A DNA stretch of 12,984 nt from a virus (lineage: Duplodnaviria > Heunggongvirae > Uroviricota > Caudoviricetes): IMG/VR virus record IMGVR_UViG_2859799533_000002; one strand, written 5' to 3'. Position numbers and translations under genes: made by a program. Positions 1 to 1,335 of the stretch are shown here, piece by piece (position 1 is the first letter of the stretch; each line of letters begins with the position of its first letter). The notes beneath the pieces were generated by a model. That model ran no database searches and was not told where the DNA came from. It worked only from the letters and a program-made list of their open reading frames with translations.

Positions 1-1119
1 TCAAATAACCAGCTTAACCCATTCCTGACCTCGAGTATCGTTATAGCGATCGGTGGTTGCCTGGACTTTATGTCCTAGTAATGTTTTTGTATCGATACCC
101 TGTGCACGGTACAGCCGTTCTGATAGAGAGCGTTGTTCATGAAATGTTGGCGGAGTTTTTCCTGCTGGTGGAATTATCCCAGCCAGATCCCGTGCTTTGG
201 CAAAGTAGTCGCTCAGGTTGTCTTTACTCATCGGCTTCGGTTGTTTCTGGTGCCGACTATGGATTAGATATGGACTTAATATTCTGTCTCGGCACCCATC
301 AATAACTTCTTTTAACGTTATCCCAATGGCATCACAGCGTAGTGTAAGCGGTAACGCCAGACGCATTCCGGTTTTTCCCTGGGTGATATGCAAGTGTTCG
401 TTCCACACATCTGAAAAACGCATGTGGCAAATGTCATCACGGCGCTGACCAGTAACAATCGCAAGAAGCATTGCGTTACGGATAAAGTGTTTTTCAGGCG
501 TTGCATTGTAAATTTTTTGCCAGTCTTCCATGGTGAGCCTGGCTCTGGTTACTTTAGGGATCGGTTTACGGGTAGCCTCCGGAGGATTCCATCCAGGAGG
601 AACTTCCCCTGCATGCTGTGCTTCTTTATAAATATCAACCCATAATCCACGATTTACTCTCGCTGTGCTGACCATGTCTTTATCCAGCCACTCATCCAGT
701 ATTAATGCAAAGTCTCTTACTTCCAGTTCTTTCAATGGGTGGTTTCCCAGACGGGAAACCAGGTATGCAGCCATTCGAGTTTTTTCTTTGTGAGTTGTAG
801 CTGCAATATCTCCATTTTTCAGTCGCGTGTCCTGTATTTTCAGATATCGATCAACCCATGCCTTTAATCTGATACCCCGACGTTTTGTTGCTGACGGACT
901 TTCATCAATTTTGCGCATGAAATATTCAGCTTCTGCTGCAGCTATTCGCTGATTGGCTGTGGAAGCGATTTTTTCTGCCTTACCTTTGTCTGTTCCGAGT
1001 CCGTGAAATTTTCCAGTCACAGGATTTTTATACTGGTAGTAAACTCTGCCAGTTCTGCGATCAAACTTTTCGTAAAGACCGGCTACGTCAGTGCTGTTTT
1101 TTTGTGGCCTCGGTGACAT
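1..1119 (-). CDS. int: Lambda-family tyrosine integrase (site-specific recombinase), apparently full length
   Basis: 372-aa ORF; C-terminal catalytic region with HEQRSLSERLY, LLGH and TTDRY motifs typical of the R-H-R-Y tyrosine recombinase fold; collinear with my recollection of lambda Int (N-terminal KFHGLGTDK arm region, central AIVTGQR). ATG at 1117-1119 (minus) preceded by AAGGAG. Stop sits at window position 1-3, so the attachment site would lie left of the window. Confidence 0.9.
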   Translation of the reverse strand: MSPRPQKNSTDVAGLYEKFDRRTGRVYYQYKNPVTGKFHGLGTDKGKAEKIASTANQRIAAAEAEYFMRKIDESPSATKRRGIRLKAWVDRYLKIQDTRLKNGDIAATTHKEKTRMAAYLVSRLGNHPLKELEVRDFALILDEWLDKDMVSTARVNRGLWVDIYKEAQHAGEVPPGWNPPEATRKPIPKVTRARLTMEDWQKIYNATPEKHFIRNAMLLAIVTGQRRDDICHMRFSDVWNEHLHITQGKTGMRLALPLTLRCDAIGITLKEVIDGCRDRILSPYLIHSRHQKQPKPMSKDNLSDYFAKARDLAGIIPPAGKTPPTFHEQRSLSERLYRAQGIDTKTLLGHKVQATTDRYNDTRGQEWVKLVI

Positions 1120-1335
1120 GAGTTAAAATCTCCTTCAGTGCATCATCATCGCCAGTATGAATTTCCGGCGCAATTCCCGTTTCACCAGGCCCAACAAATA
1201 CTGCTCGGCGATCTATCAGCCAACGCCCACGAATTTTTTGTGGTCTTGGAACGATGTATCCTAGTTTTCCGTATTTCACCAGGGTAGTGTTTGTTATTGG
1301 GAGACTGAACCGTTTTGGTTTCCACTCGTCGAGCG
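1088..1335 (-). pseudogene. xis: Lambda Xis-like excisionase remnant; start codon removed by the IS1 junction
   Basis: The frame upstream of int and overlapping it by 32 bp encodes LDEWKPKRFSLPITNTTLVKYGKLGYIVPRPQKIRGRWLIDRRAVF, which resembles lambda Xis as I recall it (LQEW...RIFPPPVKDGREYLF). No ATG in the native part; the ORF-track start at 1510 lies inside IS1. Identification is from recalled similarity, not a search. Confidence 0.45.

Follow-up and report, generated by a model that had tools for sequence, protein, structure and literature searches.

An intact integrase gene beside an IS1-truncated excisionase gene in a probable remnant of a potB/potC lambdoid prophage of Shigella

Is a prophage locked into its host chromosome when its integrase gene looks intact and its excisionase gene appears to have lost its start, or could the integrase still be at work? 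The window studied here (the whole stretch of 12,984 nt, with position 1 as its first letter) raises this question at its left end. An earlier note, made from the letters alone, had described an intact integrase, an Xis-like frame that begins at an IS1 terminus without a start codon, and a deleted prophage body, and had proposed a locked-in remnant. Our reading, to which we give a probability of about 90%, is that of a potB/potC lambdoid prophage remnant eroded by insertion sequences (IS), in which an IS1-edged deletion removed the early genes, xis is dead, int is intact and the element is fixed in place. The window would thus hold the integrase-proximal end of an ~50-kb prophage, worn down by IS elements in a Shigella chromosome.

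The integrase gene (1..1119, minus strand) is a complete gene of the lambda type: its ORF of 372 aa opens with an ATG at 1119, and an AAGGAG ribosome-binding site lies 10 nt 5' of that ATG. At the protein level, the N-terminus (residues 1-64) matched Pfam Arm-DNA-bind_1 (73.4 bits, cut-off 22; 1.6e-20) and the C-terminal catalytic domain matched Phage_integrase (67.6 bits; 1.5e-18), while alignment to the lambda Int structure 1z1b (PDB) gave an E-value of 4e-54. In the 1z1b alignment, R226, K249, H327, R330, H350 and Y359 correspond to lambda R212, K235, H308, R311, H333 and Y342: all six catalytic residues (R-K-H-R-H-Y) are kept. The frame, catalytic motifs and ribosome-binding site are therefore as intact as the earlier note had supposed. 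By these matches the protein belongs to the lambda-type tyrosine integrases, and recombination at its own att site is predicted.

Upstream of int lies a 5'-truncated excisionase (xis) pseudogene (1088..1335, minus strand), of whose original 270 nt the 3' 248 nt remain and whose frame reads LDEWKPKRFSLPITNTTLVKYGKLGYIVPRPQKIRGRWLIDRRAVF...KKQH*. An intact counterpart is found in E. coli FDAARGOS_536: 270 nt encoding 89 aa, beginning MSEQYLITLDEWKPK... (MSEQYLITLDEW...) and annotated as excisionase. Positions 1088-1335 are 100% identical to the 3' 248 nt of this gene except for one base (1103, synonymous in xis), and in the DNA alignment the homology to intact xis ends exactly at 1335/1336. The 22 nt missing from xis, ATGAGCGAACAGTACCTGATAA, run from the ATG through codon 7 and end with the first base of codon 8; the native GGAG Shine-Dalgarno and all upstream sequence of xis are also gone, with the left end of IS1 in their place. 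A search for the missing 22 nt in the window and in every Shigella locus fetched found no copy. The int ATG (1119) and the xis stop (1088) overlap by 32 nt, and the same layout is found in E. coli and in phage records.

Several lines of evidence identified the truncated frame as an excisionase. Against PHROG 629 ("excisionase") the remnant gave an E-value of 1.7e-23 over profile positions 7-81 of 82, and the intact Xis homolog gave 4.6e-26; moreover, both RefSeq and a phage record annotate the intact homolog as "excisionase". With Pfam Exc (PF07825; cut-off 23), the intact homolog reached 23.2 bits, while the remnant by itself fell short at 18.3 bits. NCBIfam held no model matching the Xis protein, and a PDB sequence search with intact Xis returned spurious weak matches only (e.g., nitrite reductase) and did not recover lambda Xis. 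Nor is the resemblance due to chance, given that 1,635 E. coli genomes match the 1-1335 stretch. The alignment that the earlier note had called for was thus run and agreed with its identification of the frame, with its placing of the start loss at the IS1 terminus (the 1335/1336 break) and, once the missing codons were counted (seven codons plus one base), with its view of xis as truncated. Homologs were found to start at the ATG 22 nt upstream, and not at the in-frame non-ATG codon that would have spoken against it.

Two later start codons were considered for xis and rejected. The internal GTG at 1279 has no Shine-Dalgarno, the profile reaches the native N-terminus and homologs use the upstream ATG; the same evidence disposes of the ATA at 1297, which gene callers chose in five of eight assemblies. 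The xis remnant is not a complete gene, its own start codon and ribosome-binding site both having been replaced by IS1. Because it lacks a start codon, a ribosome-binding site and its native promoter, xis is a pseudogene.

The int-xis stretch is widespread in E. coli. Of 5,426 complete E. coli genomes, 1,635 carry a match to positions 1-1335, with a coverage of 80% or more in 1,623 and an identity of 99% or more in 1,216; two phage records match as well, and there the genes are annotated as integrase and excisionase. At the protein level, 371 of the 372 integrase residues equal those of E. coli WP_000074983.1, R6Q being the sole change; likewise, the sole base difference from E. coli in 1-1335 is at position 1103 (T here and C in E. 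coli, plus strand). It is this base that produces R6Q, which falls in the basic N-terminal tail of the arm-binding domain of the integrase.

What took the place of the xis start is a composite of two IS elements. The left part of an IS1 (left inverted repeat, insA and the 5' part of insB; 1336..1953, plus strand) starts with its left inverted repeat GGTAATGCTGCCAAC at 1336, and its insA spans 1391-1666. It is interrupted by a complete IS2 of 1331 bp (1954..3284, minus strand), whose transposase genes point toward xis and int; this IS2 shows 99.9% identity along its whole length to entries named "IS3-like element IS2 family" and carries orfA/orfB with Pfam rve and HTH_21 domains. Past IS2 come the last 23 nt of IS1 (the right inverted-repeat terminus; 3285..3307, plus strand), 127 nt of IS1 being absent between the left part and 3285-3307. 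The inverted repeats, insA/insB and the 768-bp length of IS1 were all recognized, and the window holds three further 768-bp copies that are 90-99% identical, the IS2-split copy being the first of the series.

The far end of this IS1 adjoins not the rest of xis but a phage N6/N4 DNA methylase gene (3308..4325, plus strand), which has lost its 5' 41 nt at the right end of IS1. The reference prophage has its methylase gene 16.75 kb away from xis and, as in the window, on the strand opposite to int; the interval carries exonuclease, dicB, immunity, replication, toxin-antitoxin and antiterminator genes. Thus ~16.75 kb of early genes between xis and the methylase is deleted, and the methylase 5' edge at 3308 is the other edge of that deletion. 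The sequences flanking IS1 at 1336-3307, CGTCGAGCG and CGCCGACTG, are not a target-site duplication, while each of the three remaining copies of IS1 is bounded by a perfect 8-9-bp target-site duplication. Since the IS1 right end adjoins the methylase and no target-site duplication is found, an IS1-associated deletion or recombination is indicated, not a simple insertion; on the same two grounds, we rejected the idea that IS1 had simply inserted into xis and that the prophage went on behind it.

The course of events can be reconstructed from these borders. The left end of IS1 lies 22 nt inside xis and its right end 41 nt inside the methylase gene; the ~16.75 kb between them was lost either when an IS1 deleted the DNA next to it or when two copies of IS1 recombined. 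IS2 landed later in IS1 and inactivated it, and IS600 took away everything past the esterase gene, including the lysis and virion genes.

The four IS1 copies (1336-1953/3285-3307, 6610-7377, 8584-9351 and 9781-10548) share one orientation. Copies 1 and 2 (99% alike) form one sequence type and copies 3 and 4, which do not differ over their first 300 nt, the other, with ~90% likeness between the pairs. Copy 2 lies within IS600, bounded by the duplication GAAAATCT; its absence from several related assemblies indicates that IS1 was recently active.

Beyond the deletion, a short block of phage genes survives. Next to the methylase are a phage tRNA cluster of the late-regulatory region (4366..4615, plus strand; anticodons CAT, Arg-TCG and Arg-TCT, the CAT tRNA being annotated tRNA-Ile in the E. 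coli reference), the STnc100 sRNA (4692..4882, plus strand), which is conserved in the reference prophage, and a SASA-family carbohydrate esterase gene (DUF1737 + SASA; 5105..6493, plus strand). The esterase gene is the last surviving prophage gene and is 3'-truncated by IS600 (462 aa here vs 618 aa in the reference). We take the tRNA-STnc100-esterase region (4366-6493) to be the stx slot of Stx phages; no stx genes were found in this slot. In all, ~4.7 kb of the ~50-kb prophage survives, and the lysis and virion genes (~27 kb in the reference) are absent. The description of the prophage body as deleted therefore holds for the early ~16.75 kb and for the lysis and virion genes but not for the ~3.2 kb at 3308-~6490. 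All of these structural statements are read directly from the DNA.

At the methylase edge, the truncated gene is in frame with terminal sequence of IS1 and IS2 (3150-4325, plus strand), and gene callers in related assemblies report N6_N4_Mtase products of 352-373 aa with starts inside IS2. A methylase-IS fusion is possibly expressed, mirroring xis at the opposite end of the same IS1.

Whether all pieces come from one prophage can be weighed from this block. The order and orientation of 3308-~6490 equal those of the reference potB/potC prophage, and the methylase, tRNAs and STnc100 match it closely; on the other hand, after its first ~150 nt the esterase allele is only ~75% identical to the reference potB/potC allele. 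Where they can be placed, the closest E. coli esterase alleles (~96% identical) belong to another prophage, and the one nearest in sequence in O104:H4 2009EL-2071 is found ~556 kb from the int-xis locus. The block could thus have come from a different lambdoid prophage through an IS1-mediated rearrangement, with the whole potB/potC body deleted, as the earlier note supposed, and the wealth of IS-mediated rearrangements in Shigella genomes (the che junction and the inversion polymorphism described below) would suit such an origin. Yet the close match of the methylase, tRNAs and STnc100, and an arrangement that relative to int is unchanged in order and orientation, argue against it, one internal deletion is the most parsimonious route, and mosaic alleles are normal among lambdoid phages. 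We therefore regard the foreign origin as unlikely, though well worth keeping in mind, and the derivation of all pieces from a single prophage as the parsimonious, if unproven, interpretation of these sequences.

The location of the remnant was traced through its attachment site. In E. coli, the prophage lies between potC and potB with the 14-bp core CACCTTCTTATTCA at both of its ends. The search to the left of the window that the earlier note had recommended found the core intact: potC lies 166 bp past the int stop, and one core CACCTTCTTATTCA with the int-proximal arm is present in this 166-bp int-potC gap in each of eight Shigella loci read. Within the window no core CACCTTCTTATTCA was found. 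In one of these loci (L007) the int-potC stretch equals that of E. coli base for base. The potB/potC site is a published insertion site of lambdoid and Stx phages (PMC3486847; PMC8065619). In E. coli FDAARGOS_536 (locus L012, 727-1590) the prophage replaces the last potB codons and potB is annotated with 864 nt; in lysogens, the phage arm rebuilds the ribosome-binding region before potC, and the pot operon is split by the ~50-kb prophage.

On the far side of the element the picture is different. The gene spacing in CP026866.1 equals that of the window, and its far side leads through IS600 into a truncated cheA and che/tar genes, not into potB. Since the far side joins the che operon, the distal attachment junction is no longer adjacent to the element. 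To the right of the window in CP026866.1 (locus L013, 11657-20579), the truncated cheA is followed by cheW, tar, tap, cheR and cheB; the truncated cheA and split cheW calls suggest an inactivated chemotaxis operon. The che genes presumably lie far from pot, as on the K-12 map, and the che junction would imply a large IS-mediated rearrangement.

The xis/IS1 junction was identical in all eight Shigella assemblies read, one of which is S. boydii 600657 (CP049281); the exact integrase protein is encoded in many NCBI assemblies, these eight among them. In the 5,426 complete E. coli genomes the junction was found zero times, and an exact search in a collection with one genome per GTDB species (in which Shigella was assumed to be folded into E. 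coli) also found none. The junction is therefore a lineage-specific marker that could serve typing.

How would the surviving genes be transcribed? A consensus scan for sigma-70-like sites on the minus strand of 900-2000 found none, nor did a consensus promoter scan upstream of xis in the intact reference. When the junction was inspected by eye, TTGGCA was seen in the IS1 end, but the flank offered no -10 hexamer that could serve with it. As neither scan nor inspection gave a site, a promoter of int that resembles lambda pI or is formed as a hybrid with IS1 was rejected. No terminator was predicted between IS2 and int. Because no site is found near xis either in the window or in the intact reference, the results suggest that an early leftward promoter, now deleted, normally drives int and xis. 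What is established for lambda Int/Xis makes a silent int the probable state; stripped of its native upstream signals, the gene could otherwise be transcribed only through read-through from IS2 or IS1.

Excision can be considered in the same light. Lambda-type excision (attL x attR) requires Xis, which bends the P arm and directs Int. With Xis lost and the distal junction displaced, the remnant would be locked in: by analogy with lambda, excision competence has probably been lost. The locked-in state proposed in the earlier note is thus reinforced by the ~16.75-kb loss at IS1 and by a far side joined to che instead of potB.

A complication arises at the xis/IS1 junction itself, where a chimeric open frame of 140 codons (1088..1510, minus strand) fuses antisense IS1 in frame to the xis remnant. 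Its in-frame starts are TTG 1510, ATG 1492 and ATG 1471, all inside IS1, and the internal GTG 1279. The claim of no start codon is therefore right for the native xis gene but not for the chimeric frame, which runs on into IS1 and meets in-frame ATGs there. This IS1-derived frame also extends out of IS1 copy 2 (ORF 6518-6784), where it is fused to unrelated DNA. We treat the chimeric frame as a mechanical by-product of the insertion and not as an evident gene. For annotation, xis and the 5'-truncated methylase should both be entered as pseudogenes, and the 69-aa and 140-aa ORFs called at xis are artefacts.

Might this frame nonetheless have rewired the excisionase instead of killing it? An IS1::Xis fusion protein is formally conceivable from the sequence, as the frame is open, has in-frame ATGs (1492 and 1471) and lacks only seven N-terminal residues: the native loss amounts to these seven and one substitution (T8P), with PHROG positions 7-81 of 82 kept. 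Such a protein (antisense IS1 plus Xis residues 9-89, from 1088-1510) could act as a working recombination directionality factor if it were expressed, e.g., by read-through from the IS2 transposase promoter, and the orientation of IS2 toward xis and int with no predicted terminator between would favor this. However, a search before its in-frame starts found no Shine-Dalgarno, the strand has no promoter-like site, and since the antisense frame is open in another IS1 copy too, it belongs to IS1 itself rather than to this locus. Moreover, a foreign N-terminal extension of 46-52 residues on a winged-helix domain of ~55 residues would likely be disruptive, and the displaced distal junction leaves no excision substrate. 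A functioning rewired excisionase thus has only the faintest chance of being real. The integrase, on the other hand, could have been kept because it is used, either in trans on elements with the same attachment site or in a domesticated host function. Its ORF is intact with a good ribosome-binding site amid seven IS insertions in 13 kb, and the identical protein occurs in 316 blocks of the assembly index. But with only 1 nt in 1,335 differing from E. coli, the remnant is too young to show selection, and so the intactness of int is no sign of it; furthermore, the native promoter context is deleted, and the potB/potC site holds a hybrid int-proximal junction instead of a free attB. Retention through use is accordingly very unlikely. 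Very slight, too, is the prospect that the orphan integrase or the IS1::Xis frame is expressed via IS2/IS1 read-through and affects site-specific recombination in trans; if true, it might, for example, help or block lysogeny by other phages of the potB/potC site (including Stx phages) in Shigella. We therefore favor the fixed, IS-eroded remnant.

Farther right, the window contains a second, unrelated integrase gene with a Phage_integrase domain only, which we take to be of the P4 type. It is cut by IS600 and two IS1 copies into pieces at 8515-8583, 9352-9780 and 10549 onward, and both of these IS1 copies have perfect 9-bp duplications. Its neighbors are an intact AlpA-family regulator/excisionase gene (10712-10969, 85 aa) and an intact gene for a Bro-N protein (11026-11604, 192 aa). 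A broken integrase with an intact AlpA neighbor is the mirror image of int/xis, 9 kb away. Two inverted IS600 copies (8148-8514 and 12618-12984) are 100% complementary over 367 nt, and the ~4.1-kb segment between them (integrase fragment, IS1, AlpA and Bro-N) runs in the opposite direction in CP026762.1 (L008) relative to other assemblies (L005, L006 and L007): an IS600-mediated inversion polymorphism between strains.

The remnant is a routine IS-eroded cryptic Shigella prophage whose kind and integration site were already known. It illustrates cleanly, and resolved to the base pair, how the activity of IS1 and other IS elements reduces Shigella prophages to fixed remnants, while adding nothing new on the Int/Xis mechanism and having little importance beyond correct annotation.

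Among known systems, the closest relatives of the remnant are the E. coli potB/potC lambdoid prophages, exemplified by prophage J of O104:H4 2009EL-2071 and by the prophage at 618.8-668.7 kb of FDAARGOS_536. The window shares with them int and the retained xis (99.9% DNA identity), an identical potC-side junction, and the order int, xis, ..., methylase, tRNAs, esterase. The E. coli prophage, at ~50 kb, still has xis intact, together with its early, lysis and virion genes and the att junctions at both ends, whereas the window keeps the ~4.7 kb, an xis without its first 22 nt, and no adjacent potB-side junction. With lambda Int/Xis the locus shares the integrase domain architecture, the catalytic hexad and a small xis upstream that overlaps int; unlike lambda, its Xis is too divergent for a PDB sequence search and its att lies at potB/potC, not at gal-bio. 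The parent phage also differs from lambda in its immunity region, which is Rac-like (YdaT-type), and control of int by lambda cII/pI is therefore not to be assumed. Finally, the remnant resembles other IS-eroded cryptic prophages of Shigella, of which the IS-flanked, defective Stx prophage region in S. dysenteriae 1 is one: in each case a lambdoid prophage has been cut down to few genes by insertions of IS1, IS600 and IS2 and by IS-mediated deletions and is fixed in the chromosome (PMC7819885). Integration site and cargo differ, no stx being present in the tRNA-esterase slot here.
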